A DNA stretch of 44,146 nt from a virus (lineage: Duplodnaviria; Heunggongvirae; Uroviricota; Caudoviricetes). The DNA is taken from IMG/VR virus record IMGVR_UViG_2698536573_000002; one strand, written 5' to 3'. A program made the position numbers and the translations under genes. Numbering within the stretch: position 1 is the first letter of the stretch; every line of letters begins with the position of its first letter. The notes beneath the pieces are model-generated. The model ran no database searches and had not been told where the DNA came from. It saw only the letters and a program-made list of their open reading frames with translations. Shown in pieces: positions 1 to 44,063 of this stretch.

Positions 1-695
1 GCGTCCTGTGCGGTGTATTTAGCGTTAGCCAGGTCATATGCTGCCTTAACAGCCTTAGGCGTCGCAGCAAGCGTTTCAGACGTGCTATTGGTGGCGCTGC
101 TAAGTTGAACAAAGCCTTTTGAGGTTAAAGTTGCATCAGGATGATTACGTGATTGCTCATGTTTCACAATGGCTTGCTTAAGCCGCTTTGCTGAAACAGC
201 AAGGGAATCATCTGTACCTGCATCAATTTCTTGTTCATTAGCAAATCTTGCAACCCCAACAACAGTTTCGGTCGCGGGAGGATTAATAAACTCAATATCA
301 CCAAATATAATATTTTTAGTATCAAGAGTCTTGATTGCTATGTCACTTGATATTAAAGCAATAGTAGATGATGCTTTATTTATTATTGCTTGTTCTTGCG
401 AGTATACAGCAAACAACGTTCCCTTATTTGTATACAATCCTATTGTATGGACAACATACTCATCTTTACTATCATCCTTCGCCGTTACATGAATTGTATC
501 AGGGGAAACAACTTTGCCACCTATTGTGGTAAGTCGTTTTATTTCGTTTGTTATATTTGTTTGTGAGGTTGACGTGACATAATATCTACCACCTAAACCA
601 ACAGAAACAATCTCAACTTTATTTGTTCCTGTTTTGTTGGCATTAACCAACTCCTGACGCCCGGCGTCAGTCATCGTAAATAATAATTTACTCAC
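1..695 (-). CDS. tail fibre protein, N-terminal constant part (partial; gene runs off window start)
   Basis: Minus-strand frame open from window edge to GTG at 693-695 with AGGA 7 nt upstream; translation ends ...HEQSRNHPDATLTSKGFVQLSSATNSTSETLAATPKAVKAAYDLANAKYTAQDA, which I recognise as the conserved N-terminal domain of P2 gpH-type fibres. Confidence 0.75.
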   Translation of the reverse strand, partial: MSKLLFTMTDAGRQELVNANKTGTNKVEIVSVGLGGRYYVTSTSQTNITNEIKRLTTIGGKVVSPDTIHVTAKDDSKDEYVVHTIGLYTNKGTLFAVYSQEQAIINKASSTIALISSDIAIKTLDTKNIIFGDIEFINPPATETVVGVARFANEQEIDAGTDDSLAVSAKRLKQAIVKHEQSRNHPDATLTSKGFVQLSSATNSTSETLAATPKAVKAAYDLANAKYTAQD

Positions 696-725
696 GCTTA
701 ATTCCTTGAATAAACAAATTGCGAA

Positions 726-1307
726 TTAACACTCGCCAATTAATCGTATATAAGACACAGGCTGACAAGCACCAACAATACCGACACCACCAGAAACATT
801 GGCTGCTTGCGAAAATGTAAATAATGTTCTTGCCGACTTTGCGCTCTTGATACTTCTTAACGTATCTTCCAACATCTCTTTCGAAGGAACGGCACCATCA
901 AAAGAGTTAATCGAAGCAACAATTGAGGCTGTATATGGTTCGCCAGGTGGTGATGTTTCAAACCATTCTATTATGTTTACCTCTCCCCCCAAGCTATTTA
1001 CTACATCTTCAACCGCTGCCCTTGTACCCTTTATTCGCTTTGTTCGTATTATTGATTTGAAAACAGAACGCTTTAACGATACAGGCCAACTATCCCTCCA
1101 TGTATCAGCATTCCATTGCCAAGCTAAATGATCGAGGACAACTGAATCCAGGTTATCAACAACGCTATATATTTCTGTCTTATATATTAAATTGTTAATT
1201 GCTTGTAGTTCATCATCGATAGCTTTCGACATAGCTATCACGTTGGGATCGCTAGCTAAGTTAGGAGGTAAAACATCCAACAAGCTAACATTAAAGATAT
1301 CAGCCAT
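726..1307 (-). CDS. tail/baseplate protein, P2 gpI-like
   Basis: 193 aa ORF directly upstream of fibre and downstream of baseplate J, overlapping J stop; position and size fit gpI. Confidence 0.55.
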   Translation of the reverse strand: MADIFNVSLLDVLPPNLASDPNVIAMSKAIDDELQAINNLIYKTEIYSVVDNLDSVVLDHLAWQWNADTWRDSWPVSLKRSVFKSIIRTKRIKGTRAAVEDVVNSLGGEVNIIEWFETSPPGEPYTASIVASINSFDGAVPSKEMLEDTLRSIKSAKSARTLFTFSQAANVSGGVGIVGACQPVSYIRLIGEC

Positions 1308-2424
1308 CCTCTAACCCCGCATACTGGCAATTTATATTTCTCTCTCTGGCGACCTGTGTCTCTCCAACCACAGTAAAAACAGGACTTGATATTTCTAATC
1401 TTTTAGCCCCAGCATTTTTTAAACGTTGAATAATTTCATCTGGATTTATATCTCTTCCCATAACCGAACGTTGCCATTGTTTATACTCATCAATAGCTTT
1501 CTCAACCTCACTTTGAATTAAAGTTGTTCTGTTTTTGTCCGATGAGTTAATCCAGTATTTAATTATTATATCGTATTCAATGCTCTCTGGTTTCTTAACA
1601 AGAACTTTATCTGTGAATGGTCGAATATTAGTTGCAGAGAGAACGCTATTTATCTGCTCTAATAGTTCATCAGAAGGTATATCTCCGTTCTCTAACAAAG
1701 AACGGATTTCTACAATTCCGGGCGATGGTGTATATACATTCACATCTTTTATATTCTGATTGGCTGTTCTTGTCCAATATTTATAAGAATCCTCCGGCCC
1801 TGCTGTAGACAGTTTTTCCGGCGACAGTTTTATTCTTTCAGCATAATTATCATCTGACTCCGTATCAGCACCAGAATTAGATGTTGTTACATTCCTTACG
1901 CTGGAAACATACGGCAACGGAGTCACCAACTCATTTATTTGCCCTGGTAAAAAGCCATTCCCAGATAAACCAGGTATAACAGCATATCCTGAGACTGTAC
2001 CAACTGTTTTCCCAGCAGGTATTTCCAACAAAATATCTGTTTGGAAAATAACACCATTTCCAGTTGAAACTTGAGTGCCAGCAGGTATTGTATATATCCC
2101 CGATAATTTTGTTGACAGATTAAACTCAAATGTAGTCAAGGCAGATTGAGCTTCCAGCCTAGGCGTATCCGTCAGATAGCCTATATGGTCGAGATATTCA
2201 CCTTCACCATATGTAAGAAGGTTTTGTTTTGCAGAAAAATCGATAGCTTTTCTTTGCTGTATAATAATCTCACACAATGATAAGATGAATAATCTACGTG
2301 GATCAGCAGGTGCTAATGTTTCACCTGTTATACTCTCAAAAGCCCTGATTGAACGAGTTGTTATATCAGTCGGGTTAGAATCTGCGAAAGTAATATCTGG
2401 CAAACCACCACGCGGCAACGTCAT
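1300..2424 (-). CDS. baseplate assembly protein J
   Basis: 374 aa; order W-J-I-fibre typical of P2-like baseplate; overlapping stops/starts indicate operon. Confidence 0.7.
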   Translation of the reverse strand: MTLPRGGLPDITFADSNPTDITTRSIRAFESITGETLAPADPRRLFILSLCEIIIQQRKAIDFSAKQNLLTYGEGEYLDHIGYLTDTPRLEAQSALTTFEFNLSTKLSGIYTIPAGTQVSTGNGVIFQTDILLEIPAGKTVGTVSGYAVIPGLSGNGFLPGQINELVTPLPYVSSVRNVTTSNSGADTESDDNYAERIKLSPEKLSTAGPEDSYKYWTRTANQNIKDVNVYTPSPGIVEIRSLLENGDIPSDELLEQINSVLSATNIRPFTDKVLVKKPESIEYDIIIKYWINSSDKNRTTLIQSEVEKAIDEYKQWQRSVMGRDINPDEIIQRLKNAGAKRLEISSPVFTVVGETQVARERNINCQYAGLEDG

Positions 2425-16111: not shown

Positions 16112-17968
16112 CTATATGTTTACGCCTTTACTTATAACTCTACGGCGTCTTCTACGTATACCTGACGAGTTCTGCACATACACATTACCTCGCATTTCCT
16201 GTTCGGCAAGCCAGTTAAAATTAGGGTTCAGAATTTCCATCGCGGCAGTTGCATAGTTACGGCAATCAAGAGGCTCGTTACGCTCGTAGACTTTCACCCA
16301 CTTTTCTTTTGTCTGCCCATTTTTATATTCAAATATTTTTTTCTCTGATAATAATCCTTTAAAGTATTCGGTATCATATCCTCTGTCAGAATCTAATGGG
16401 AAATGCATATAACCAGGACCAGGATCATGTAGTTTAATTCTTGCCATGATGGTCCCTTTACCATCATCAACCCCCAAATTAAACAACATAGCACCCACAC
16501 GGTTATTATTACTTGGCTTTCCTATAAATGGTAAACCTACCCCACCACGCCCCCTGATAGAGTATATTCGCCTTGATTCTCTCAGCTTAGTGAAGCGATA
16601 TACCTCTGTCGTAAAATGCCCACCAGAGTCAATACAAACAGAAGAAATCTGTAATTTTCGACCGTCACGGAATGACCAGCTACGGAGTAAGTATTCATCA
16701 AGTTGTTTCCAGACAACATCTTGTGCGGGATCACCTGGGAATATTTTATATTCTATCCCCCATGACTCCTTACCTTTTCCCCAACCGACCAATTCACAAA
16801 CTAAATACGTGTCCTGTACGTCAACACCAGCACTTAACAATAAAACATCATCTGGTAAAAACTCTTCAAACCTTATTCTGCGTTGCAACAAGTATTCAGG
16901 ATCGATATCGTCTTTAGCATCCTCTTTCCATGGCTCACCCAGCTTAAGGTTAATAAACTCCATTAATCCATTTTTATCGCGGTTTCTGGTTGCTTCCGTA
17001 AATTCTTCAACCAGCTCTGACAATGCAACCCACGGGGAGTAAAGACTGTTAATATGAAAACCAACAATACCTTTAACTCCAGTATGTTCAGCTATCCATA
17101 CCCCCTTTGCCAACCAATCAACGTCTGGTTTACCAGATCCGCGCATAATCCCGCCGCACTCACAGCACTCATATCTGGCCGTTTCCGGTAACGCCTCACC
17201 TGAATCGCTCTTATCCCATCTGACTTGCGACCATTTCATCACCTGCATGGTGCCACAACATGGGCAAGGAACATGGTAGTAACGCTGATCGGAGAGCTTA
17301 AACCACTTGTGGATTTTGCTCGTTTCCTCAAAAACAGGAGTAGAAACAAAAACTTTCTTACGATTATGAAAGTTGGTAGTACGCTGAATACCTAGTTTTA
17401 GTGGGTCGCCCTCCTGCGTCACACCGTAACGATCAATCTCATCAGCTAACAGTATTCGAATTGGCCTGGATGCAAGACCTGCTGGGGAATTAGCACCAAC
17501 AAGTGCTATATATCCACCAGCGTAATGCTTCATACGTATAGTCGTGCTGGACTTTTTGGCTGCACCGCGCCCCTCTTTTCCTTCATGCAGCTTGTGTTTC
17601 AAACCAGGGGAATATTTGAACGTCGGATCAATACGCTCCTTTGAAAAAGCCTCAGCCGCCTCTACCGTTGGATAAATCATCAACTGAGGAGATGGCTCCT
17701 GATCTGCAAAGTAACCCATAACATTTAGCTGTAATTCGGATTTACCAATTTGCGAGCTACATTGCATCACTACTGTTTCTGTATCAGCGTCACCAATAAC
17801 ATCCATTGGTTCACGCAAATATGGCACTCGGCTTGTACGCCACGGCCCTGGCTCTGGAGACGTTCCCGGCGCTACATGACGATACTTATCAGCCCATTCG
17901 GAAACAGTTAGCCGTGATTTAGGGCGAAGCGCACGGAAAAAAGCGGTGCTCCATACTGTTTCGCCCAT
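16112..17968 (-). CDS. terminase large subunit, lambda gpA family
   Basis: 618 aa; size and position fit lambda A. Confidence 0.85.
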   Translation of the reverse strand: MGETVWSTAFFRALRPKSRLTVSEWADKYRHVAPGTSPEPGPWRTSRVPYLREPMDVIGDADTETVVMQCSSQIGKSELQLNVMGYFADQEPSPQLMIYPTVEAAEAFSKERIDPTFKYSPGLKHKLHEGKEGRGAAKKSSTTIRMKHYAGGYIALVGANSPAGLASRPIRILLADEIDRYGVTQEGDPLKLGIQRTTNFHNRKKVFVSTPVFEETSKIHKWFKLSDQRYYHVPCPCCGTMQVMKWSQVRWDKSDSGEALPETARYECCECGGIMRGSGKPDVDWLAKGVWIAEHTGVKGIVGFHINSLYSPWVALSELVEEFTEATRNRDKNGLMEFINLKLGEPWKEDAKDDIDPEYLLQRRIRFEEFLPDDVLLLSAGVDVQDTYLVCELVGWGKGKESWGIEYKIFPGDPAQDVVWKQLDEYLLRSWSFRDGRKLQISSVCIDSGGHFTTEVYRFTKLRESRRIYSIRGRGGVGLPFIGKPSNNNRVGAMLFNLGVDDGKGTIMARIKLHDPGPGYMHFPLDSDRGYDTEYFKGLLSEKKIFEYKNGQTKEKWVKVYERNEPLDCRNYATAAMEILNPNFNWLAEQEMRGNVYVQNSSGIRRRRRRVISKGVNI

Positions 17969-17973
17969 GAGGT

Positions 17974-18534
17974 TTATTCTTCCTGCTTAATAAATCGGGA
18001 TTCCTGGAGCGCCTGAAGCGCAAAATTAATCTCGTCTTCAATAATGCGTTCGATCTCCCTGGCTGTTTTGCCTTCACAACGGGGAGCTGCTCTTGGAGCA
18101 ATACTAAATAAGCGGCTACGCAATTCATTAGCTGCCAGAAATGCATCATCCCTGACCGTATCTTTAGCGATGAGAGAGCCTTCCTTTTCTTCAAATTCAA
18201 GGCGTTTCAGCTTTGCCTGATAAATTTTTTCTGCGGTCTTAGCCTTGTTGAATTGCACCGCAACACCGGAAGTACCACCAGCTAATCCGGCATCATCAGC
18301 GGGTAACTCTGGTTGTTCCGAAGATATCCCATGCCCTCTTTTTCCATTTTCAGCAGATACCTCACGACCAACCTGTCGACTCGCTTCATAAGCCGTACTG
18401 GCTTTATCAAAATCCAGCTTGCCGCTTTTCAGCACTGGAATGCGACCGGAACGACAGAGCTTCGTAACCATTGCCGGAGAAATACCTTTCCGGCGGGCAA
18501 ACTCTGACTTACTGACGATGGCCATTACTTGCAA
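17974..18534 (-). CDS. terminase small subunit (putative)
   Basis: 186 aa with N-terminal HTH-like segment immediately upstream of large subunit. Confidence 0.5.
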   Translation of the reverse strand: MQVMAIVSKSEFARRKGISPAMVTKLCRSGRIPVLKSGKLDFDKASTAYEASRQVGREVSAENGKRGHGISSEQPELPADDAGLAGGTSGVAVQFNKAKTAEKIYQAKLKRLEFEEKEGSLIAKDTVRDDAFLAANELRSRLFSIAPRAAPRCEGKTAREIERIIEDEINFALQALQESRFIKQEE

Positions 18535-19115
18535 CCATTAGCAAGATACTGAACAAATCCCTCATGCGTTTCATGCGCATCGTGGTACTGACGATAAACA
18601 TCCAGCAACAATGCAATTTCCATATCCGTCGCGGGAATACGTTCTTTATCAATAGCCAGGTACTTAATTTGAACAACAGGGGAAGAATTATCGTCTTCTT
18701 CCTGCGGCTGTTCATCGCTTAACATTTCGTCAAGCTCTGCATCATTAAACCCAAGCAGATCAATATCAAAATCATCATCCATTAACTCTTTGACTTCTTC
18801 GGCCAGAAGCTGCATATCCCAGCCAGCATTTAAGGCCAGCTTGTTATCTGCAATCCTGTACGCCTTCTTCTGTTTTTCAGAAAGGTTACTCAACCGAATC
18901 GCCGGAACTTTATCCATTTCCAGAATTTCGGCTGCTGCAAGCCGCCCATGCCCCGCAATCAGTTCATTCTTTTCATCGATCAGCACAGGATTAGTGAAAC
19001 CGAACTCACGGATACTGTTCACCAACTGTTCAACTTGCTCATCTGAATGAGTCCGTGAATTTTTGGCATATCTGAGCAGCTTACCGACTGGTAAATATTC
19101 GATTTTTAGAGCCAT
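18525..19115 (-). CDS. ParB-like nuclease domain protein
   Basis: 196 aa; ParB N-domain motif ...ELIAGHGRLAAA...; paralog of 21782-22405. Confidence 0.7.
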   Translation of the reverse strand: MALKIEYLPVGKLLRYAKNSRTHSDEQVEQLVNSIREFGFTNPVLIDEKNELIAGHGRLAAAEILEMDKVPAIRLSNLSEKQKKAYRIADNKLALNAGWDMQLLAEEVKELMDDDFDIDLLGFNDAELDEMLSDEQPQEEDDNSSPVVQIKYLAIDKERIPATDMEIALLLDVYRQYHDAHETHEGFVQYLANGCK

Positions 19116-19672
19116 TTTTTAACCGCCATAACACAACAGGTTAAAGAAAACTGTTTAACTTATTGATACTAAAAGAGAAAAATGACGATCTTTTTACTCA
19201 TAAAAAATCACACAAACCAGCATAATTATCTGATTTTATTAAGTTTTTATAAGTAAAAAGGATCTTGCGATGGTGTTTTGGTTAAAAGATCGGATGTATT
19301 TGCATGATTTATAACGATTTTTATCAGAACAACATCACATTGGTTAAAGATCTGCGCGTATCTTGATGATCTAAAAGAAAATTTCCTACTTTCTTTTTAC
19401 CAGCACAAATACAGCAAAAAATCACGTTTTCCCGATATTTTTCAATGAGATGAGTAAATTTCTTTTACCGCAACTTTTAACCTAACTTTTTTCACGTTTA
19501 GCTAGCCGAACATCGGGGTTCGAATGACCCGCATCCAACGCTTTTGGCCAGAAGGACCCAATTCTGCCGGACGATGAAACGATGCTCGTGCCCACCCACA
19601 GACAGCCAGCGAGCAACGCTACAGAACACAGTGAATACACCCTGCATAACAACACCATCAACCACACGATGA

Positions 19673-20392
19673 TTAACGAGAGAACGTCTTAGAAAGAATG
19701 TCATCAATAGCCTTTGTGACTTCATCAGCAAACGCATTCTCACCAGCACGCAGCGCCACGCCATGCCAATCAAGACGCTGCGAATAGTTAGGTTGCTGGA
19801 TAAACGTAAGGATCAACGTAGGACGCCGCCCAACGCGCTGCCAGACGCCTGGTTGAAGCGGGTTACTTGTACCAGGTCGAACAACAAAAAACTCCGTAGG
19901 CTTGCCCTGACGGCGATTTTGATGCGCATCTCGCTGAACTCTTAGGCCAGATAAGACCTGCTGTAATTGCCCCCGCGAAATATTCCCGTATTTGTCCAGC
20001 TTTGCGCCGGGACCAGGAGCAAGCTGCCAGCCGTTAGGCAAATATCCACCAGCCCTTAGCGCCCCTTCTGAGCGTTTGTACTGTCGTTGGCCACCTTCGA
20101 TTTGCGGAGTCAACGTTACAGGGGCTGGCGTTCCTCCCCATTCACGAGCATACACAATGGCTGTAGGATCACTCTTCTTTGCGGCCAAAACGTAAGTAGA
20201 GTTCTGAATCCACGGCGTGGGCCTGTCAAATACCCGATTAATTTCATTCTTAATCGCAGCCTGAGAAGCCTTTGCCGTTCTGGTTGCCGCAAGCGCCATT
20301 GCGAACGGCAATTCGCGTTCTTCAAGGCGCTGGAGTTGTCGTTGAATATCCTGAGAAGAAAAATCCATCTTTATCTCAATTCTGTCAGCCAC
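19673..20392 (-). CDS. hypothetical protein
   Basis: 239 aa ORF, Gly/Pro/Gln-rich; no family recognised. Confidence 0.3.
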   Translation of the reverse strand: MADRIEIKMDFSSQDIQRQLQRLEERELPFAMALAATRTAKASQAAIKNEINRVFDRPTPWIQNSTYVLAAKKSDPTAIVYAREWGGTPAPVTLTPQIEGGQRQYKRSEGALRAGGYLPNGWQLAPGPGAKLDKYGNISRGQLQQVLSGLRVQRDAHQNRRQGKPTEFFVVRPGTSNPLQPGVWQRVGRRPTLILTFIQQPNYSQRLDWHGVALRAGENAFADEVTKAIDDILSKTFSR

Positions 20393-20408: not shown

Positions 20409-21788
20409 CTACTTAATCAACGGCCGGAAAGCCGTCAGCACATCATCAGATCGTCCGATTGTTGAACCACCAGGCAACGGCAACTCAAACTCAAAACGAA
20501 CAGCTTTCTCCAGACTCTCCCAGCGAAGAGAATCATCGTTAATAACGTGCAAATACCAGCTCTTACAGTTGAATATTGACCGCTTAATCCTGAAACCATG
20601 TACACGACACAACTGCTTCACTTCATCATCAGAGTGGAACTTCTGGTAAAACCAGTGCCCCTTCCGGTACAACGCGGTAAAACCGTTATGATCAATAAAA
20701 TAAAGCCGGCTTTTGGAACTCGCCGCTTGTGTTTGCTTCAGGACTGTTTCCAGCTCTCCACGGCTACGACCAGAAAAGAATATTGACCCACCAGCTTTAC
20801 ACAGGCCTTTCAGAACCGTCAGAACGGACCATTCAGCCTCGACACTATCGACCGAGTTCAAAACGCTATCGCAAATCACGTAGTCGTAACGCCCTCGCGT
20901 TTTTAAGTCGTCCACCAGCGTATCAATCATCCGGTTTGTTGCGGTCCTATCCAGAGTGTTTCCAGCGCCCTTACGGCGGAAAAGCTCGAGATCATGCAGG
21001 TTATATCCCTTTGCCCTGAGCATTCGCGCGTAGTCTCCCTGCCCCGAACCAAAATCAATTCCTCTTGGCGTCTTGGCAATGATCGGGAGGATCAACGACT
21101 CATACAGGTTTGATTTCAGGCTGCCACCATTACGCAACCGCATAAGCTGCGCATACGTCTGGATGTATGTTGTTTTCTCCAGATGAGAATACTCAAATAC
21201 ACCATAAGTTTTATTCAGATAACTTTGGTATTTTTCCTTCTCAACATCAGGGATCACAAACACCGTTAGCGGTGTGCGCGTCATCTTCGCTGCTAATGCA
21301 TACTGAGCACAGTGAATAACCTCGCCAGACTGAGTAGCAACACAACCACCCCACGGACCATACTTGATAACCAGTTCCGCTATGTTCTTTCGAACATATG
21401 CCATTTTCGCGCGCATATTGCCTGAGATCTGGCTTGCCGATACCTGAACAAAACCATGCTTATCTTCCAGACCGGACACCCTGCAACGCTCATCTCCGCT
21501 ATCAAAATCCGTTCCGTTATGCAGTTGGTTAAACCGTACTTCGTCGTATACCGTCGTTTCACAGGGCAACACATACACCGCAGCACGCGTTATTCCCAAC
21601 TTACGTAGCGCCTTCGTCCTTTGGTGTCCCGCCACCAGCAAATCGCCGCGCACTATCAATGGCTTCACAAGCCCCAGCTCCCTGACGCTTTCCGCTAGCC
21701 TCGCAAGATCATCCTCACCGATAAAACGCGGGTTATATTCCGCGCCGCGTAGGTGCGTTATGTCGTAATTGAGGTGAAGCATCAGCAC
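20409..21788 (-). CDS. ParB-like nuclease domain fused to SAM-dependent methyltransferase domain
   Basis: 459 aa; N-terminal ParB motif (LVAGHQRTKA), C-terminal class I MTase motif I (IDFGSGQGDYARML) and DYVICDSVL; no DPPY-type motif. Confidence 0.6.
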   Translation of the reverse strand: MLMLHLNYDITHLRGAEYNPRFIGEDDLARLAESVRELGLVKPLIVRGDLLVAGHQRTKALRKLGITRAAVYVLPCETTVYDEVRFNQLHNGTDFDSGDERCRVSGLEDKHGFVQVSASQISGNMRAKMAYVRKNIAELVIKYGPWGGCVATQSGEVIHCAQYALAAKMTRTPLTVFVIPDVEKEKYQSYLNKTYGVFEYSHLEKTTYIQTYAQLMRLRNGGSLKSNLYESLILPIIAKTPRGIDFGSGQGDYARMLRAKGYNLHDLELFRRKGAGNTLDRTATNRMIDTLVDDLKTRGRYDYVICDSVLNSVDSVEAEWSVLTVLKGLCKAGGSIFFSGRSRGELETVLKQTQAASSKSRLYFIDHNGFTALYRKGHWFYQKFHSDDEVKQLCRVHGFRIKRSIFNCKSWYLHVINDDSLRWESLEKAVRFEFELPLPGGSTIGRSDDVLTAFRPLIK

Positions 21789-22405
21789 ACCTCCCCAGCC
21801 AGCAATGCGGATACAAATCCGATATAGCTGCCATTATCATCAACATAACGAGACACCGCGCAGTCAAAACGATCCGCTTCCTCATCCGTTGCCGGGATTT
21901 TATGACCTCCAAATGACAGGTACTGAACTTTTACGCCTGATTTGGCCTCATCCTTCTCAAATGGGATATCCATACCCTCTGTGTCATCGTAGACCGCCGC
22001 ACTCAATAAGTTATCCAGTTCGCGCTGAGTAAAACCAATTGAGTCCAGAGCAAAATCATCGGCCGCAAGATCTGCAAGCTCCGCGCTTAACAACTCTTCA
22101 TCCCAACCAGCATTCAGCGGAATACGGTTGTCGGCCAGACGATATGCCTTCTTCTGATTCTCCGTTAGCCCAGCCAGAACAATGCAGGGAACATCATCCA
22201 TCCCCAACTGAGTGGCCGCAGCAATTCGACCATGACCAGCAATTACAACGTTGTTCTCGTCTATCAGGATCGGATTAGTCCATCCGTACTCCTGTATGCT
22301 GGCAATAATCTGATCTACCTGCTCCACGGAGTGTGTGCGAGCGTTCTTTTCATAACCAATCAACACAGAAAGTGGTAAAGAAACCACATTAAGATGTTTT
22401 GTCAT
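21782..22405 (-). CDS. ParB-like nuclease domain protein
   Basis: 207 aa; ...VIAGHGRIAAA... and QKKAYRLADN shared with 18525-19115. Confidence 0.7.
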   Translation of the reverse strand: MTKHLNVVSLPLSVLIGYEKNARTHSVEQVDQIIASIQEYGWTNPILIDENNVVIAGHGRIAAATQLGMDDVPCIVLAGLTENQKKAYRLADNRIPLNAGWDEELLSAELADLAADDFALDSIGFTQRELDNLLSAAVYDDTEGMDIPFEKDEAKSGVKVQYLSFGGHKIPATDEEADRFDCAVSRYVDDNGSYIGFVSALLAGEVC

Positions 22406-22875
22406 GCCGTTTATCCGCTAAAATCCCCTCGCTTGTGCAAGCAAGTGGGCCTCGGTTTGTATCCACGGCACCCTGTGGGTATGAATGACTGTCGTCAGGT
22501 CGCAACTGACGGCGGTCGCCCACCTTCCAGTAATAAAAAAGCCACCAGCATTAACTCCACAGCGAGCTGGAGTTAATGAGGCAGCTTTGGTTTGCGCATT
22601 ATCGCAGCCCCTGGTAAGCACAAGAGCTGCTGTAATGCGTTACGCAGGGATCAAACGGATGCGGCCGTTATTTACCTCAATACGAGAGTATTCCGGCTTA
22701 CCATCAACGATTCCAGTAATGACAAGTTCGCCATCAGACGAGCATTCTTCTTTGTCGTCTTCATATAGCTAAGACAAACCTCAAAGATAACGAGGTATCT
22801 TTCGCTTTTCTCCAGACGTAAGCGCCAGCCAGAAATACCAACAAATCTCTTATTGGAAGCGGAAACCAGAACAAA

Positions 22876-23175
22876 TCACTCGGCATAAGCACGATCATCT
22901 TCCGCTGCTGATTTACACGCCGCAGTTACTGATATATTGATAACCGGTGCGCTAATCGTGATGGACGACTCTGTCGGTTGACGCGATATAACTGAACGAT
23001 GGTTATCAATGAAGTCCACAATCTCATTCAGGCATTCTTTAGCTGCCTCATCGTGACTTTTTCCGTATGCTTCACGGAGGACTTTCATCCTCATCATTGC
23101 TCCGTCACATATAGTCGAAAGCGCGTAAAGCACATCACTAACCGCCATTTCTTTTTTGGTGCTTGTCGAAGGCAT
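22876..23175 (-). CDS. hypothetical protein
   Basis: 99 aa ORF in operon downstream of repeat copy 1. Confidence 0.3.
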   Translation of the reverse strand: MPSTSTKKEMAVSDVLYALSTICDGAMMRMKVLREAYGKSHDEAAKECLNEIVDFIDNHRSVISRQPTESSITISAPVINISVTAACKSAAEDDRAYAE

Positions 23176-23249
23176 CCCATGTTCTCCTTTGTCTGGATGT
23201 AAAAAAGCCCCGGCAATTGCCGAGGCTCGTTGTTCGTTATCGTTACGGT

Positions 23250-23450
23250 TTAATGCTCGCGTCGTCCGGCGACAACTTCGGATTTGTATTTCAGGTCGCC
23301 CAGCAAGAATTGCAGTTTAAGCATCTTTGCCGCCGTGTAGTTCCCTGATTCCACAACCTCTTTCATGAGGTCATAAACGGCCGCTACATCATCAGCCAGG
23401 AACTCTTTGCGTTGCTGCTCAGTCGCACGTTTGAAGGAAATACGCATCAC
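23250..23450 (-). CDS. hypothetical protein
   Basis: 66 aa ORF overlapping upstream gene stop. Confidence 0.3.
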   Translation of the reverse strand: MMRISFKRATEQQRKEFLADDVAAVYDLMKEVVESGNYTAAKMLKLQFLLGDLKYKSEVVAGRREH

Positions 23451-23716
23451 TCATCATCTCCTGCCGCACATACAACCTCACAAAAAAAATCAGCAGAATG
23501 TTTCTCCTTGAACGAATGACGCTCAAAACCGCACTCAATATCAGGCGCAAAAACATCCACCACATACGGTCTTTCAGAATGTTTGTTTTCCCAACGATAA
23601 ACCGTAGTGACGTTGAAATGTTTTAACGCTTCACGGAACTCAACGCTGCCCGTCAGGTTTTTTGAGGTCAGGTATTGCAGGAGGTTTTTTACTACTTCAC
23701 GGTCTTGTACTTTCAT
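23447..23716 (-). CDS. hypothetical protein, first gene after repeat copy 1
   Basis: 89 aa; ATG at 23716 is the last triplet of the conserved repeat, RBS GGAGA inside repeat. Confidence 0.4.
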   Translation of the reverse strand: MKVQDREVVKNLLQYLTSKNLTGSVEFREALKHFNVTTVYRWENKHSERPYVVDVFAPDIECGFERHSFKEKHSADFFCEVVCAAGDDE

Positions 23717-23825
23717 CAGATTTCTCCGGTTTAACCAGGGCGGGTATCGCTCGGTTTCGGGTATAACCTTAGGAAATTTTTTCCCACCTGTAAAGCACTT
23801 TTTATATAAATCTATAATTATATAA
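23717..23825 (-). repeat. ~109-bp promoter-bearing repeat, copy 1
   Basis: Near-identical to 29974-30082 and 40078-40187; contains TTTACA-17bp-TAAGGT, 5' leader and RBS. Confidence 0.85.
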
Positions 23826-23827
23826 TT

Positions 23828-24415
23828 TTATGCCACTTGCCAGAGAGCATCATGCAACTGGATACCTCCATTGCACTGGTTGCCCCAGCCATGCCAACCA
23901 TCAGGTAAATCACCGCGAGCAAACAGCTCAATACGAGGAACATCACCTAACAGCCTTACCAGCTTGTCACGAACCACATCAGGCTTCCGAGAATGCTCCA
24001 GACGAGGCGATGTAAACGACTGAATGATCCCCGCATCAAGGCGGGTCGGCAATTTGCCTTTTACCGCAAACAAGCAATCTTCACTGTTTGCACGAGTCAT
24101 ATGCCCCATCCCCATCACCAGCTTATCTGGTTGTCGGCTACCACATTTGTTCCATGTGAAGCCCTTCATGGTCATAAGCCTGAATCCCCATGCTTTCACC
24201 ACCAGCAACGCTTCTTCTGGCTGAGTCGGAACCCACCACATGGCCAACAAACACGATTCAGGATTAGCAAGCTGCCAGACAGGAATACGAGCAATATCCT
24301 CAGCTTTCATCGTTGGATACTTAAAACCAGCTCCACGATTCCCATCCTTACACTTATCTTTGTATTCCCAGGGGGGATCTGCATAAATCAGATTAAACAA
24401 TGCAATTGCCTCCAT
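23828..24415 (-). CDS. MT-A70 family DNA N6-adenine methyltransferase
   Basis: 195 aa starting ...LIYADPPWEY (DPPW catalytic motif near N-terminus). Confidence 0.75.
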   Translation of the reverse strand: MEAIALFNLIYADPPWEYKDKCKDGNRGAGFKYPTMKAEDIARIPVWQLANPESCLLAMWWVPTQPEEALLVVKAWGFRLMTMKGFTWNKCGSRQPDKLVMGMGHMTRANSEDCLFAVKGKLPTRLDAGIIQSFTSPRLEHSRKPDVVRDKLVRLLGDVPRIELFARGDLPDGWHGWGNQCNGGIQLHDALWQVA

Positions 24416-33930: not shown

Positions 33931-33946
33931 CATGGAGTCTCGACAA

Positions 33947-34600
33947 ATGACTATATCTGTAGGTATTTTCAACGGAAAAGGCGGCGTAACCAAATCAACC
34001 ATTGCTCGTGCTTTAGCAGTTGCTTATGCAAAGGCTGGCTGGAATGTATGCCTGATCGATATGGATGTGCTTAACGGAACGGTAACGCGTTGGGTACAAC
34101 GCAGAATGGCCAACAATATCGAACCTGCAATCGCGGCGCAGCCGTGCGGCACGCCATCACAAGTCCAGAAAATCATCGAATCAGAAGTATACGACCTGGT
34201 TATCGTTGATGGCGGTGCCTACGCATCTGAATCAGTACCGAAGCTCTCTGAATTTCTGGATATGGTTATTTTGCCAACCAGATTCTCTACCGATGACCTG
34301 GAAACCACCGTTAACACAGCTCACGGCATCGTTAAAAAGGGTGTACCAATCAAGAAAATTTGCATGGTGTTTTCCGGCGCGGCTGAAAACGAAGCTGACT
34401 ATATTGAAGCCCAAGAGTACCTGGCTAATACGCCATACTTTGTTGTCGATAAGTACATTCCCCACAAGCCAGCTCTGAGCAAAGCTCAGGATAAAGGCTT
34501 AAGCCTCATTGAGTGCTCATACGTTGCGCCACGCAAAAAAGCAGACGACGTTATTCAGGGGATTATCAACCAGCTTGAGGCTCTGACTACTGCCGCGTAA
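33947..34600 (+). CDS. ParA/ParF-type partition ATPase
   Basis: Deviant Walker A GIFNGKGGVTKST; start at second ATG (GGAG 9 nt upstream); ORF from 33932. Confidence 0.8.
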   Translation: MTISVGIFNGKGGVTKSTIARALAVAYAKAGWNVCLIDMDVLNGTVTRWVQRRMANNIEPAIAAQPCGTPSQVQKIIESEVYDLVIVDGGAYASESVPKLSEFLDMVILPTRFSTDDLETTVNTAHGIVKKGVPIKKICMVFSGAAENEADYIEAQEYLANTPYFVVDKYIPHKPALSKAQDKGLSLIECSYVAPRKKADDVIQGIINQLEALTTAA

Positions 34601-39320: not shown

Positions 39321-39360
39321 GGCGCTTACATTACACCACCATAAAACGATCCGTAAAGGA

Positions 39361-39633
39361 TCATTTGATCTCTTGTTCCAATTCTGACGACACTTTAACC
39401 TTTTCCCATACAAGGGTTTGCAGCCTTAACAGAATCGCATCTTTATCAAGGTGTGAAAGATCCTTAACCATATCGTCAAATGACAGAACGCGAATGGCCA
39501 TCTCAATGACCCTCGGCGGCTCCCCCTTCTCATATCGCTTATATGTAGCCAACGATATCCCAAATTCTTCGGCGGCTCGCTCCTGCGTCCAGTTCATCCC
39601 ACGACGCCATAATTTCAATTCATAACCCGTCAT
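39361..39633 (-). CDS. XRE-family HTH protein
   Basis: Start at MTGYEL (GGAGG 5 nt upstream); LKLWRRGMNWTQERAAEEFGISLATYKRYEKGE. Confidence 0.55.
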   Translation of the reverse strand: MTGYELKLWRRGMNWTQERAAEEFGISLATYKRYEKGEPPRVIEMAIRVLSFDDMVKDLSHLDKDAILLRLQTLVWEKVKVSSELEQEIK

Positions 39634-40893: not shown

Positions 40894-41131
40894 TCCTATA
40901 ACCTGTAGTTTATATCACTAACTATATAACCTGTGGGTTATAATTTCAAGAAAAACGGGGCCATTTAACATAATGGACGTTATCGGCACCACCGGATCAC
41001 CGTTCATTGTCGGATCTAAAAAATCCGCTCAAAAGATCATGTTTTCCTGGGCGTTTTCCACTGTTTTTTATGTTGCTTATTTGTTAATGAAATCTCGTTT
41101 TCAGTTTCGCCTCATTTTCGACACGAAAGCC

Positions 41132-41759: not shown

Positions 41760-42349
41760 AATAGAAATTTACTACATTGCGTATAAGACAAGTTTTCTAT
41801 GTCTAATAGAAAAGGATGTTTCTTACGTTTTGTCGCGTTCTGATTGCTACTGTGTGCGTATTTATCGACGTTTATTGATAAGGTCCGTCCCTTCCTCCTG
41901 CAAAGCCCGGCCGTAGGCCTTATTTCGGCCTTATATAAATTGATTTTGTATAGTTCGAAACGCGCCGTTTCGAAAAGGATGATCAGGCTGCTCCATGCCT
42001 CCGGCAAGTGCCGGAGGAGGTATATTTGAGCGTAGCGACTCGAACCGGCGCGAGCTTTAGCTCGCTGCAAGGGCGAACATATTCACAGGCAAAGCCTGCG
42101 TAAGTTAAATAAAGAAAGTCTTAATAAAAGAAAGTGATTTTGCATTTATTTGTTTAGTGCATCTATTATAAAAAACCATTTGCATATACATATCAAAACT
42201 GTGGATAACTTTATTATCCGATGCCTGTAAAGGCGATATTTTTGCTGTGTTCAGGTTTAGAGAAAATTAATTTAGACTATTTTTTGAACAGATATTTTAT
42301 TGCGACGTAGATAATCCTCCGGTAAAACCGGATTCATCATTCAGGTGGG
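41760..42349. other. putative plasmid replication origin region downstream of repA
   Basis: AT-rich; DnaA box TTATCCACA (revcomp of 42200-42208); palindromes ttcgaaacg-cgc-cgtttcgaa and cctccggca-ag-tgccggagg near 41950-42015. Confidence 0.45.
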
Positions 42350-43198
42350 TTAATGTTGGAGTGATTTCCAGGTCTTTCTTAGCCTGTTATAACGCTGCTC
42401 AACGAGGGATCGTAAATATGCAAGGTCAGCACCTGGATACATGCCATCAGCAAATTCCTGGCTAACCTCTCTAGTGATTTGATGACGAAGTTCGGCCTCT
42501 CCCTTTTCCCGGACAAGACGCGCAGCTCTCTCCGCTGCTTTCTGTTTTGCCTTTATCTCTCTGGCCGTCTTCCTCTGGCGCCATACATTCTCCATCTGCT
42601 CCTGAATAACAATACGCTTATAATCAGCCTCCGTTATCGCTTTTTTAAGCCGTTCGCTATTCTTCGCATTGAAGTAATTAAGTTTCTGGCTAACCGCACG
42701 TCTCCATGCTTGTTCAGTAATACCAACGGTTTCCAGCAGTTGATCACGAATCTCTATTTTCGCTGGCCAATACTGTTTATTCACCCGATCCCAGCGACGT
42801 TCATAATCAATAAAACCTAACGCTTTCAGTTGCGACAACGCCCTTGTACAGCGCGTTATAGACTTGTTCCCAGCTTCGGATACGGTAGACAGGCCGCAAA
42901 AATCAGCCAACGCCTCAGCACTAGCCAGAACCCGCTTAGAAATGATGTTTACATGGTGCAAAATCGCAGCGATCACAGCATTAATCGCCCGACGACGATG
43001 CTCGTTTATCCGGCGCTTCCGCTCTGACGGTTGATTAACGTAGAACGCAACCTCACACGTAAGATCACGCCCATTAATGCGCTGTAAAGCATCAGATAAC
43101 ACCAGCGGCAGCTTGTGCGTATGGTGCTTTGGAGGCTGGAACTCCGGCGACAAATTACAAACGTAAGCTGAACGTAGAGACGGCATTGGTCTATCCAT
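42350..43198 (-). CDS. repA: replication initiation protein, IncFII RepA1 family
   Basis: Contains KSITRCTRALSQLKALGFIDY block resembling R100/R1 RepA1 as I recall it; ORF open to 43327, internal ATG at 43198 gives ~283 aa; upstream part is leader targeted by antisense RNA. Confidence 0.7.
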   Translation of the reverse strand: MDRPMPSLRSAYVCNLSPEFQPPKHHTHKLPLVLSDALQRINGRDLTCEVAFYVNQPSERKRRINEHRRRAINAVIAAILHHVNIISKRVLASAEALADFCGLSTVSEAGNKSITRCTRALSQLKALGFIDYERRWDRVNKQYWPAKIEIRDQLLETVGITEQAWRRAVSQKLNYFNAKNSERLKKAITEADYKRIVIQEQMENVWRQRKTAREIKAKQKAAERAARLVREKGEAELRHQITREVSQEFADGMYPGADLAYLRSLVEQRYNRLRKTWKSLQH

Positions 43199-43242
43199 AT
43201 GTTCGCTCTTGCGTCCACGGAAAACCAACGTATAATGGGAGT

Positions 43243-43320
43243 TGTCGAGGCGCCCATGGTTAGTTGTTGGTTTTCCGTGGATGTCGCAAGAAGCCCGCAG
43301 ATTTATCTGCGGGCTTTTTG
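43243..43320 (+). ncRNA. antisense RNA to repA leader (CopA/RNAI-like)
   Basis: Plus-strand promoter TTGCGT-16bp-TATAAT (43209-43236); terminator gcccgcag-atttat-ctgcgggc + T-run at 43293-43323; fully within repA leader. Confidence 0.55.
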
Positions 43321-43362
43321 TTTCCATATCTGGTCACTTTCCAACCAGACACCCACAATCAT

Positions 43363-43379: not shown

Positions 43380-43508
43380 TTGAGAGAACTCTACCACAAC
43401 ACTTTCGGTCATGCACGAAGTCTCTCACTGATCGAACGATAATCCACCAGTAAAAGGATCTAAATTGGATCTCGTTTTGCGAGCATCATACTACTGGCCT
43501 AACTCCAG

Positions 43509-44063
43509 TCAATGATTCCCAGCCGGAAACCTGCGGTAAAGCGTGGATAAAGTAACATCGAAGATAATCGCTATCCGCTTACGTGAAACACCATTCGCAA
43601 TAAGCCTTCCGATCTGTTCCCATTGCTCTGGTGACAGCTTTGAGCGGCGTCCTCCGATCCTGCCGTTAGCCCTTGCCACCGCCAATCCTGCACGCGTTCT
43701 TTCAATCATATTTTCCCGCTCCATCTCTGCGACTGCACTCAGCATCGTGTAGGCAAAGCGGCCAATTGAAGTGCTAATTTTTATCCCTTCCGTAATCGAA
43801 ATAAACTCAATGTTGTTTGATAAAAAATGGTTAAGTAAATCAACAAGATGAATCAGGGAACGCCCCATTCGGTCCAGCTTCCAGACAATAACCGTATCGC
43901 CCGGCCGTAACACCTTAAGTAGCTTATCAAGTCCTGGTCGTTTTGATTTAGCACCGGATATTTTATCTTCAAAAATCCGGTCACATCCTAAACTCCTGAG
44001 CGCCTCCAGTTGTAATTCCAAATTCTGGTCAAAAGTTGACACCCTCGCATAACCATATTGCAT
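43509..44063 (-). CDS. serine recombinase, DNA invertase (Gin/Cin/Pin/Hin family)
   Basis: 184 aa; GYARVSTFDQ catalytic Ser, VWKLDRMGRS, AEMERE, GRIGGR, C-terminal HTH LSTLYRR. Confidence 0.8.
   Translation of the reverse strand: MQYGYARVSTFDQNLELQLEALRSLGCDRIFEDKISGAKSKRPGLDKLLKVLRPGDTVIVWKLDRMGRSLIHLVDLLNHFLSNNIEFISITEGIKISTSIGRFAYTMLSAVAEMERENMIERTRAGLAVARANGRIGGRRSKLSPEQWEQIGRLIANGVSRKRIAIIFDVTLSTLYRRFPAGNH

Follow-up and report, generated by a model that had tools for sequence, protein, structure and literature searches.

The ORF-poor gap at positions 19116-19672 is the cos (DNA-packaging) region of a ~48-kb circular Escherichia coli phage-plasmid, in which a lambda-style cut site is followed by an array of short repeats. 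It lies in the window analysed here, i.e., the whole 44,146-nucleotide stretch of IMG/VR record IMGVR_UViG_2698536573_000002. With a probability of roughly 0.72, the gap comprises a cosQ, a cosN that is nicked by a gpA-type large terminase (TerL), and a ~400-bp repeat array that serves as an extended cosB and is bound by the small terminase (TerS) and IHF. The phage-plasmid is identical to a plasmid of E. coli ATCC 25922 and is present in 72 of 5,426 complete E. coli genomes, this reference strain among them; it is a plasmid prophage of a Dam-positive host, and close relatives are known as virions, namely the Yersinia phages vB_YpM_39, vB_YpM_41, and vB_YpM_44. The scarcity of open reading frames emphasized in the preliminary description was borne out: the gap is bordered by a ParB_N-like gene (18525-19115, minus strand) and a gene for a 239-aa protein (19673-20392, minus strand) that had no match in Pfam, NCBIfam, or PDB, and its G+C content is 28-30% within 19100-19500. 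An exact 16-mer scan of IMG/VR returned mostly loci already known, and eight additional matches are probably chance hits, as related proteins were lacking there. The plasmid pSLy3 was considered as a member of the same group and rejected, since it belongs to the SSU5 supergroup and has roughly 100 kb; the paper on vB_EcoM-613R2 does not mention cos.

The position of the ends can be read from deposited sequences. The records of vB_YpM_39 and vB_YpM_41 begin with GGTCATTCGAAC, and the record of vB_YpM_44 ends with this sequence and begins just past it, so that each of the three virion-derived records is broken either at 19529/19530 or at 19517/19518, two points with a distance of exactly 12 nt. 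As the records are labelled circular, these break points could in principle be depositors' choices. The Logan metagenome contig L078, which encodes a TerS of only 39% identity, ends exactly at the homologous first cohesive-end base. Record and contig ends thus provide indirect evidence of unique virion DNA ends and nicks that are staggered by 12 nt. The overhang is probably 5'-protruding, and retention of the 12 nt in assemblies is the outcome expected from end-repair of 5' overhangs. No lineage with the GGTC...AC core differs at any of the 12 cosN positions. Upstream of cosN lies the heptamer GGGTCCT, which we take to be the lambda cosQ; its offset is identical in the window and in lambda (J02459), and it is kept in lineages whose gaps are ~59% identical; L069 and L071 have it displaced by 1 nt. 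Conservation in the gap peaks in the block formed by the two elements, with 85-95% three-way identity vs ~40% elsewhere, and cosQ has been described as a highly conserved element of 7 bp (PMC4669245). A literature search for the cohesive-end sequence returned only an unrelated yeast paper, and a search for cosQ together with GGGTCCT nothing useful. Between cosN and the first repeat, the spacer TTCGGCTAGCT is kept in all relatives, even in the Methyloprofundus MAG L074 and in L078 (TTTCGTCTAGCT), and may be a TerL contact.

Table 1. Features of the cos region and of the adjacent genes. Copies are lettered a to i; bp and + offsets are counted from the left end of the virion chromosome, and relatives in the repeat rows are the distant relatives.
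Feature	Position	Strand	Remarks
cosQ-like heptamer GGGTCCT	19553-19559	-	right end of virion chromosome; -30 to -24 from first cohesive-end base
cosN, 12-nt cohesive-end sequence GGTCATTCGAAC	19518-19529	-	nicks predicted after 19530 and after 19518 (minus-strand reading)
Spacer TTCGGCTAGCT	19500-19510	-	kept in all relatives
Repeat i, GGTTAAAAGT	19473-19482	-	bp 48, lambda R3 position; 8/8 conserved across three lineages; GGTTAACAA in L069, L071, L072; GGTTACCA in L078
Repeat h, GGTAAAAGAA	19460-19469	-	bp 61; 7/8 conserved; AGTTAACAAA at +61 in relatives
Repeat g, GGTAAAAAGA	19392-19401	-	bp 129; GGTTAACAAAA at +128 to +130 in relatives
IHF-consensus-like site, degenerate	19359-19371	-	2 mismatches; contains GATC 19368; relatives at +157 to +159 with 0-1 mismatch to WATCAANNNNTTR
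Repeat f, GGTTAAAGATC	19342-19352	+	inverted; bp 181; contains GATC 19349; second repeat of preliminary description; TTGTTAACC at +180 to +182 in relatives
Natural deletion (90 bp) in plaque-forming vB_YpM_44	19302-19391	.	alignment of first 330 bp of OR545055 with window
Repeat e, GGTTAAAAGATC	19280-19291	+	inverted; bp 242; contains GATC 19288; first repeat of preliminary description; TTTGTTAACC at +241 to +244 in relatives
Repeat d, AAGTAAAAAGGATC	19251-19264	+	inverted; bp 270; contains GATC 19261; inverted repeat with c
IHF-consensus-like site AATCAGATAATTA	19223-19235	-	1 mismatch; between inverted repeats d and c; 0-1 mismatch matches at +290 to +294 in 5/6 lineages
Repeat c, GAGTAAAAAGA(TC)	19189-19199	-	bp 333; abuts GATC 19187; GTAAAAAGA invariant in 20 gap sequences
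IHF-consensus site TATCAATAAGTTA	19156-19168	-	perfect match; 0-1 mismatch matches at +354 to +362 in 5/6 lineages
Repeat b, GGTTAAAGAA	19139-19148	+	inverted; bp 384; 7/8 conserved; TTTGTTAACC at +377 to +385 in relatives
Repeat a, GGTTAAAAAA	19115-19124	-	bp 406; weakest copy; 5/8 conserved; overlaps RBS region and start of ParB-like gene
ParB_N-only protein, 196 aa	18525-19115	-	candidate rival repeat binder; PF02195 E = 4e-8; phrog_620; between cos and terS
TerS, proposed repeat reader	17974-18534	-	likely start ATG 18525; phrog_57 E = 2e-41
TerL, lambda gpA type, predicted to nick cosN	16112-17968	-	PF05876 GpA_ATPase E = 5e-76; PF20454 GpA_nuclease E = 5e-84
ParB_N-methyltransferase fusion	20409-21788		ParB_N family, flanking cos
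ParB_N-family protein, 207 aa	21782-22405		flanking cos

The array consists of nine GGTWAAA(A)G copies that extend over ~400 bp up to the ParB-like gene, with three IHF-like sites interspersed (Table 1), which reappear in other lineages at +159, +294, and +360. Two of the nine copies of this cosB-like motif are the direct repeats that had originally been connected with a candidate packaging site, a connection that we can confirm; both repeats are real, but their coordinates needed a correction by 1-2 nt (TGGTTAAAAGATC at 19279-19291 and TGGTTAAAGATC at 19341-19352). The repeat core GGTWAAA is a stronger signal than GATC, as it occurs seven times in 402 bp vs 0.30 expected, a number reached by none of 2000 shuffles, and the gap contains five of the six GTWAAAAG copies of the window. 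Counted from the left end, the copies at bp 48, 61, and 129 are forward, and those at bp 181, 242, 270, 333, 384, and 406 are mostly inverted. Repeat positions are 83% conserved over three lineages vs 41% of the other positions (Fisher P = 4e-10). The outermost copy a may simply be a ribosome-binding region. The natural deletion in vB_YpM_44 removes repeat f, two GATCs, and the IHF-like site at 19359-19371, and since this phage forms plaques, these elements are dispensable for growth.

Conservation and position suggest that the array most likely binds TerS, and IHF would bind at the interspersed sites. The N-terminus of TerS gave weak helix-turn-helix matches to Cox and HTH_17, and its AlphaFold2 model shows an N-terminal domain with a MerR/Xis-like beta-helix-helix-beta-helix layout, for which the Foldseek neighbours were consistently MerR/Xis-like, all of them at non-significant E values above 0.3. 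The repeat sequence covaries with the packaging module. In the loci L069, L071, and L072, whose TerS and TerL are 51-55% and ~75% identical to those of the window, cosN is kept, and the repeat is replaced by GGTTAACAA / TTGTTAACC, with copies at the same offsets (+48, +61, +129, +181, +243, ~+316, and ~+383); these copies are concentrated in the gap, which holds 7/7, 10/11, and 8/10 of the GTTAAC copies in the respective 7.5-kb loci. The helix-turn-helix of TerS differs between the two repeat-type groups in the recognition-helix region (ISPAMVTKLCRSG vs LSRAAITKLCHSG), and the Methyloprofundus relative combines a third helix-turn-helix type with a GTTAACAC repeat. Locus L030, with a divergent TerS (49%) and the same gap sequence, was considered as a natural TerS swap and rejected, as its terS is a frameshifted pseudogene. 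A profile search of genome contigs with the TerS alignment added only two distant loci, too few for finding TerS/ParB recombinants.

The ParB_N protein encoded beside the array has diverged together with TerS (62-67% identity), and the covariation therefore cannot separate the two binder candidates. Instead of TerS, the ParB_N-family proteins flanking cos could use the array for loading or as a kind of centromere, and their binding could link the packaging site to DNA modification or a further ParB function, an explanation that we consider unlikely. It would agree with the ParB_N gene that is always found directly downstream of the array in the window's phage family and also in the Methyloprofundus relative, with the divergence of its product between the two repeat types, and with the DNA-modification genes that occupy the cos-terS slot in relatives. 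The layout also resembles that of the classical P1 parS, which likewise combines short repeats with an IHF site. However, ParB_N (residues 15-86) was the only domain detected in the 196-aa protein, with neither a helix-turn-helix nor any other domain for sequence-specific DNA binding; L080 has a C5 methylase before TerS and lacks ParB_N; the first repeat is at the lambda R3 position beside cosN, which fits a terminase; and the plasmid has its own ParA locus at 33.9 kb. Less likely still is that the array is, beyond a terminase anchor, a shared platform at which ParB_N proteins would be loaded onto cos and packaging would be linked to DNA modification or a different anti-restriction function. 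If true, such a platform would account for the DNA-modification slot that distant phages have in common at a fixed place between cosB and terS. ParB_N domains are CTPase/Srx-like domains that are found here free-standing or fused to a methyltransferase, and relatives have Mom or C5-methylase genes instead.

For the distal half of the array (19139-19371), a function in transcription has to be weighed as well: the repeats could be operator or activator sites that control the packaging/head operon, and the GATCs 19187 and 19261 could confer Dam sensitivity. In line with this, copies d and c form an inverted repeat around an IHF-like site, with 31-nt arms that are 77% complementary, and the GATCs at the outer ends of d and c are the only ones kept in relatives with ~59% gap identity. 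The RNA fold z-score is -3.5, which results from the inverted motif copies. Moreover, the distal part is missing in the distant relative L078, whose cosB comprises only ~110 bp; the distal copies are therefore not needed for cos function as such, and could serve another purpose. On the other hand, a scan of 18900-19900 revealed neither a sigma-70-like promoter nor a terminator, and Rfam gave no match. The upstream genes are co-directional, so that transcription can read through cos as in lambda. Distal and proximal copies share the motif and switch to GTTAAC together, and the two GATCs in question are both lost in L029, and one of them is lost in L015, L023, and L030. A transcriptional role of the distal half thus appears improbable, and we prefer to regard it as part of the extended cosB.

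The GATC cluster, from which a cos/pac candidate or regulatory region had been deduced, was re-examined. All five sites were confirmed (19187, 19261, 19288, 19349, and 19368), and their number is indeed far above expectation at the local level, with 5 vs 0.84 expected in the gap (P ~0.0005, dinucleotide shuffles of the 402-bp stretch), but not at the level of the window, as five GATCs within 185 bp occurred somewhere in the window in 17% of random placements of its 124 GATCs (P = 0.17). The window as a whole is GATC-poor (124 vs 154 expected). Three of the five have been lost, some by deletion, among relatives of at least 96% identity, plaque-forming Yersinia phages included; the viable phages in which they vary or are missing are at least 97% identical across the gap. 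GATC 19288 is GATT in 10 of 13 close relatives and occurs among the 14 close sequences only in the window, ATCC 25922, and vB_YpM_39; GATC 19349 is kept only in L019/L020 and the close clade, and is altered in vB_YpM_39; GATC 19368 is altered in vB_YpM_41; and the deletion of vB_YpM_44 has removed both. In relatives with an identity of ~59% in the gap and ~72% in the 2.1-kb region, only GATC 19187 and GATC 19261 persist; the former is lost (GATT or GAAC) in 4 of 20 distinct gap sequences, and the latter is kept in 19 of them. Relatives with a TerS of 51-55% identity have 0-1 GATC in the gap and retain the whole cos architecture. Comparison of the 14 close sequences showed variation at 3 of the 20 positions within GATCs and at 43 of 402 positions overall, and hence there is no extra constraint on the GATCs. 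Four of the five simply result from the sequence at the 3' side of repeat copies (AAAG-ATC or AAAGG-ATC), and the fifth lies inside the degenerate IHF-like site. The cluster thus appears to be a mostly unconserved by-product of the repeats, with no conserved function and no control element. A GATC follows AAAGA at three of six copies, above the prediction from base composition, which leaves room for a lineage-specific role of methylation, and at most, Dam methylation might modulate binding in the window's sublineage.

Control by Dam or SeqA as in a P1 pac site or a replication origin, with methylation of the clustered GATCs gating cleavage or initiation, is therefore very unlikely and close to refuted, despite the local GATC excess, the AT-rich region, and a plasmid prophage in a Dam-positive host. 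The preliminary idea of a cos/pac candidate was right insofar as the interval holds the packaging site, with cosN and the cosQ-like heptamer, but this is not a P1-type pac: TGATC(A/G) does not occur at any of the five GATCs (cGATCt, gGATCt, aGATCg, aGATCt, and tGATCt), all five are at one side of the cut, and the terminase is of the gpA/Nu1-like cos type with fixed ends, not a PacAB headful enzyme. Nor does the GATC logic itself hold, as the cut site contains no GATC and is at least 150 bp away from the cluster, most sites of which vary among near-identical viable phages. The analogy to a replication origin likewise had to be abandoned. No DnaA box with up to one mismatch is present in 19116-19672, and the only perfect DnaA box of the window (42200-42208) is located beside the IncFII-type repA (42350-43327); both lie at 42.2-43.3 kb, and an AT-rich stretch is also present in this part of the window (within 42.1-43.3 kb). 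As a caution for similar scans, a local GATC cluster in AT-rich DNA here gave no evidence of Dam control.

Our preferred model of a cos region with an extended cosB can be described as follows. In minus-strand order, the cosQ-like GGGTCCT would be followed 23 bp on by cosN and then by the ~400-bp cosB-like region. TerS would bind to the repeats of the array, assisted by IHF bending, and the complex would set the gpA-type TerL on cosN, where nicks 12 nt apart would generate the GGTCATTCGAAC cohesive ends. The complex would then anchor the cosB-bearing end, and packaging would proceed toward the ParB-like, terS, and terL genes. The genome ends and the packaging signal of the phage-plasmid are thereby fixed, which aids annotation, genome orientation, cos-based vectors, and transduction assays, and the lambda cosQ heptamer and its spacing extend well beyond phages with lambda-like cohesive ends. 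Furthermore, GGTWAAAAG and the Yersinia proxima type GGTTAACAA, each with its own TerS, represent a natural specificity pair, analogous to lambda and 21, for studies of DNA reading by TerS.

The comparison with known packaging sites places the region closest to lambda cos, which has the layout cosQ-cosN-cosB with R3-I1-R2-R1 and is cut by the gpNu1/gpA terminase. Common to both are a gpA-type TerL, a 12-nt stagger at a fixed site, GGGTCCT at the identical -30 to -24 offset, a first repeat at a similar position (bp 48 here, R3 core at bp 53 in lambda), and the location of cos immediately before the terminase genes, where a co-directional operon is transcribed across it. At the level of sequence, the two also resemble each other in having repeats that point in either direction and IHF-like sites interspersed among them. 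In lambda, R2 is inverted and an IHF site lies between R3 and R2, and the recognition helix covaries with the R sites between lambda and phage 21 (PMC4669245); the arrangement d/IHF-like site/c resembles R3-I1-R2, and the covariation of repeat sequence and TerS helix-turn-helix resembles the lambda/21 case (PMC4669245). In contrast to lambda, the TerS has no significant sequence similarity to Nu1 (BLASTP E = 1.3), nine copies over ~400 bp are found instead of three over ~120 bp (~3x longer), cosB and terS are separated by a ParB_N gene, and the element that carries the site is not an integrating siphovirus but a circular plasmid prophage of the IncFII-RepA type that bears a myovirus-type name. 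The cohesive ends (GGTCATTCGAAC here, GGGCGGCGACCT in lambda) share 3 of 12 bases, and the site is therefore lambda-like in its working but outside the narrow cohesive-end group of "lambda-like phages" defined by Feiss.

Variation in cosB layout among relatives with shared cosQ and cosN is known from the "simple" and "complex" types of N15 and Monarch described by Feiss and colleagues, in which distal inverted accessory sites can be non-essential and rR2 is ~200 bp away from R3 (PMC4669245). The dispensable segment 19302-19391 and the short cosB of L078 correspond to this, whereas the putative cosB array of our region exceeds both described types in length and copy number. P1 pac shares with our region a GATC cluster near the packaging site of an E. 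coli plasmid prophage. There, however, seven Dam-methylated TGATCA/G hexamers flank the PacAB cut of a headful system, and the GATCs described here are 150-340 bp away from the cut, on one side only, not conserved, and lack the TGATC(A/G) context, with a cos-type terminase and fixed ends. With SPP1 pacL/pacR, the array shares multiple short TerS-type boxes across a few hundred bp at a spacing of 50-70 bp (PMC4669245), an arrangement that points to wrapping of the DNA on a TerS oligomer, as in nucleosome-like models (PMC4669245). SPP1 uses headful packaging with boxes at both sides of its cut, whereas all copies of the window are on the cosB side of a cos cut.

The gap between the ParB_N-like gene and the 239-aa gene (19116-19672), which the preliminary description had flagged as a cos/pac or regulatory candidate, is best explained as a lambda-type cos site, as seen from the position of the ends, conservation and covariation. 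The records of the Yersinia phages vB_YpM_39 and vB_YpM_41 open with GGTCATTCGAAC, which is 19529-19518 in reverse complement, and have 19530 as their last position, while the vB_YpM_44 record starts at 19517 and has GGTCATTCGAAC as its last 12 nt. Break points exactly 12 nt apart would be expected for assembled cos phages with 12-nt cohesive ends. An independent Logan contig (L078), whose small terminase subunit TerS is only 39% identical, stops exactly at the homologous base (GGTCGCGCCGCC/CCCGCCTTTCGTCTAGCT, break at the slash). In an alignment of 20 distinct IMG/VR gap sequences (gap identity to the window about 59%), the best-conserved block was TTGGGTCCTTCTGG..AGCGTTG.ATGCGGGTCATTCGAACCCC, with a three-way identity of 85–95% vs about 40% in the rest of the gap. 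The end sequences of the window (...TTGGGTCCTTCTGGCCAAAAGCGTTGGATGCG/GGTCATTCGAAC) and of lambda J02459 (...ACGGGTCCTTTCCGGTGATCCGACAGGTTACG/GGGCGGCGACCT) alike carry GGGTCCT at −30 to −24, and we take this lambda heptamer to be cosQ. The 7-bp cosQ is highly conserved among lambda-like phages (PMC4669245). Between the putative nicking site cosN and the first repeat lies a TTCGGCTAGCT element (19500-19510), which is similar to lambda bp 20-28 (TTTCGCTAT) and is kept even in L078 and a Methyloprofundus MAG (L074).

From cosN to the start of the ParB-like gene, nine copies (a–i, with i nearest cosN) of a GGTWAAA(A)G repeat are found, which include the two direct repeats noted before, now placed 1–2 nt differently (TGGTTAAAAGATC at 19279-19291, TGGTTAAAGATC at 19341-19352). 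Their core GGTWAAA occurs seven times in these 402 bp, with 0.30 expected in shuffles of the stretch and none of 2000 shuffles reaching seven, and five of the six GTWAAAAG copies of the window lie here. Over three lineages, repeat positions were conserved at 83% vs 41% for other positions (Fisher P = 4e-10). As lambda has its R3 core at bp 53, followed by R2 (inverted) at 114 and R1 at 155, the first copy (bp 48) occupies the R3 position. Five or six lineages have recurrent sites at +159, +294 and +360 that match the IHF consensus WATCAANNNNTTR, and the +294 site lies between inverted copies d and c, an arrangement similar to lambda R3-I1-R2. The plaque-forming vB_YpM_44 (OR545055) has a natural 90-bp deletion (19302-19391) inside the cosB-like array that takes out two GATCs, repeat f and one IHF-like site. 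The distal half of the array could alternatively be a transcriptional control region; no sigma-70-like promoter and no terminator were found in the gap, nor did it match Rfam.

In three relatives, L069 (Yersinia proxima type), L071 and L072, with TerS 51–55%, the ParB-like protein 62–67% and the large subunit TerL about 75% identical to the window, synteny, the cosQ-like element and cosN are all retained, and each repeat copy is swapped for GGTTAACAA / TTGTTAACC at unchanged offsets. Of the GTTAAC hexamers in these 7.5-kb loci, 7/7, 10/11 and 8/10, respectively, lie within the gap. The N-terminal helix-turn-helix of TerS reads SKSEFARRKGISPAMVTKLCRSG in the window group vs SKAAFARLVGLSRAAITKLCHSG in this group, and L074 (TerS 41% identical) combines a third helix-turn-helix type with a GTTAACAC repeat and has the same CCCCG..TTCGGCTAGCT spacer as the window. 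Lambda and phage 21 differ jointly in recognition helix and R sites (PMC4669245), a pattern also found between the window and its relatives. TerS gave profile matches to P2 Cox and HTH_17, and its AF2 model has a confident beta-helix-helix-beta-helix N-terminal domain, with MerR, Xis, BldC and RacA domains and a phage TerS/Rpp entry as nearest structures, all at non-significant E-values. Binding of the array by the adjacent ParB_N proteins would also be compatible with this covariation, but a search of these proteins gave no DNA-reading domain. In the lambda-type cos model, TerS oligomers would recognise the repeat copies, probably with IHF bending, and place the gpA-type TerL to nick cosN 12 nt apart, presumably leaving 5' overhangs; they would hold the end with cosB, from which packaging would proceed towards terS and terL, and the cosQ-like heptamer would serve termination.

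The five GATC sites that drew attention to the gap are present as described (19187, 19261, 19288, 19349, 19368). Their excess holds inside the gap (5 vs 0.84 from dinucleotide shuffles of the 402-bp stretch, P about 0.0005) and not across the window, as random placement of its 124 GATCs yields five within 185 bp somewhere in 17% of cases; statistically, the cluster is weak. GATC is scarce in the whole window (124 vs 154 ± 12 in dinucleotide shuffles, 100/100 with at least 124). Four of the five form the 3' flank of repeats (AAAG-ATC in c, e and f, AAAGG-ATC in d), and 19368 lies within the degenerate +159 IHF-like site. Among 13 close relatives, 19288 is GATT in ten, 19349 is altered in vB_YpM_39 and 19368 in vB_YpM_41, and GATC positions are not less variable (3/20) than the gap (43/402). 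Relatives about 59% identical in the gap retain only 19187 and 19261, their invariant stretch being GTAAAAAGA without the TC that completes GATC, and the GTTAAC-type relatives have 0–1 GATC in the gap. None of the five has the P1 pac context TGATC(A/G), and the gap holds no DnaA box. A Dam-gated pac or origin is nearly refuted by the conservation data. The cos half of the original proposal is supported by break points and conservation; the GATC cluster itself is incidental. Three tight GATC triplets (39348-39370, 40995-41038, 43430-43471) have three sites per 23–44 bp, and Dam-sensitive replication control would be plausible at the last, between repA and the resolvase gene.

Features of the window and of related loci (repeats in bp from the left virion-chromosome end)
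Feature	Position	Strand/orientation	Remark
TerL, lambda gpA-type	16112-17968		downstream of gap; PF05876 + PF20454
TerS	17974-18534		downstream of gap; phrog_57, E = 2e-41
ParB_N-like gene	18525-19115	-	border of gap; ParB_N alone in cos–terS slot
cosN	19518-19529	-	
Repeats	48, 61, 129	forward	
Repeats	181, 242, 270	inverted	
Repeat	333	forward	
Repeat	384	inverted	
Repeat	406	forward	ninth of nine
Swapped repeats (L069, L071, L072)	+48, +61, +128 to +130, +180 to +182, +241 to +244, +313 to +318, +377 to +385		
239-aa gene	19673-20392	-	other border of gap, upstream
Further upstream genes	20409-24415		other side of cos; ParB_N-Methyltransf_23 fusion, second ParB_N protein, MT-A70 methylase
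ParA	33932-34600		plasmid function, away from gap
Perfect DnaA box	42200-42208		sole one in window; in 25%-G+C stretch next to repA
repA, IncFII-type	42350-43327	-	plasmid function, away from gap
Resolvase	43509-44063		plasmid function, away from gap
Slot, L078	124-1428		ParB_N-N6_N4 methylase fusion
Slot, L074	1839-2988		ParB_N + Mom-family protein
Slot, L080 (relative)	340-1383		C5 methylase

The window is a phage-plasmid, circular and about 48 kb in size. Matches to the gap were found in 72 complete E. coli genomes, in 71 of them on plasmids of 47–50 kb, with 100% identity in the ATCC 25922 plasmid NZ_CP009073. The type also exists as free phages, namely vB_YpM_39, 41 and 44 and the E. coli phage vB_EcoM-613R2. 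The plasmid origin likely lies at 42100-43327, with repA and the stretch bearing the DnaA box. Around the gap, G+C is 28–30% (19100-19500), neighbouring genes are all on the minus strand like both flanking genes, and lambda-like portal and protease genes also lie downstream. The 239-aa protein (phrog_1924) is labelled 'minor tail protein', which looks doubtful given its position beside cos; searches of Pfam, NCBIfam and PDB gave no match. In every relative its gene adjoins cos, at the right end of the genome, also where the upstream context has changed to a toxin-antitoxin pair or lysis genes. In an IMG/VR relative, an IS200/IS605-type element (L009:1166-2817; TnpB of 389 aa, TnpA-like ORF of 141 aa) lies between this gene and the cosQ-like heptamer. 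Other relatives have a terS pseudogene with multiple frameshifts (L030:4001-4540), a 1014-aa TerL with a LAGLIDADG-domain insertion (L073:1366-4410), and a 966-aa ORF with fused TerL, portal and protease matches, which may be an assembly artefact (L071:4062-6962). The slot between cos and terS is always filled by a ParB_N or DNA-modification gene in the window, L074, L078 and L080, which suggests a link between DNA modification and the packaging site.

In conclusion, this type of cos site is already known, and we found no published description of the present one in the literature. Of some interest are the slot for ParB_N or DNA-modification genes fixed between cos and terS, a cosB-like array about three times as long as that of lambda, and the pairing of cosQ heptamer and spacing as in lambda with a cohesive end that differs from that of lambda, matching it at 3 of 12 bases only.
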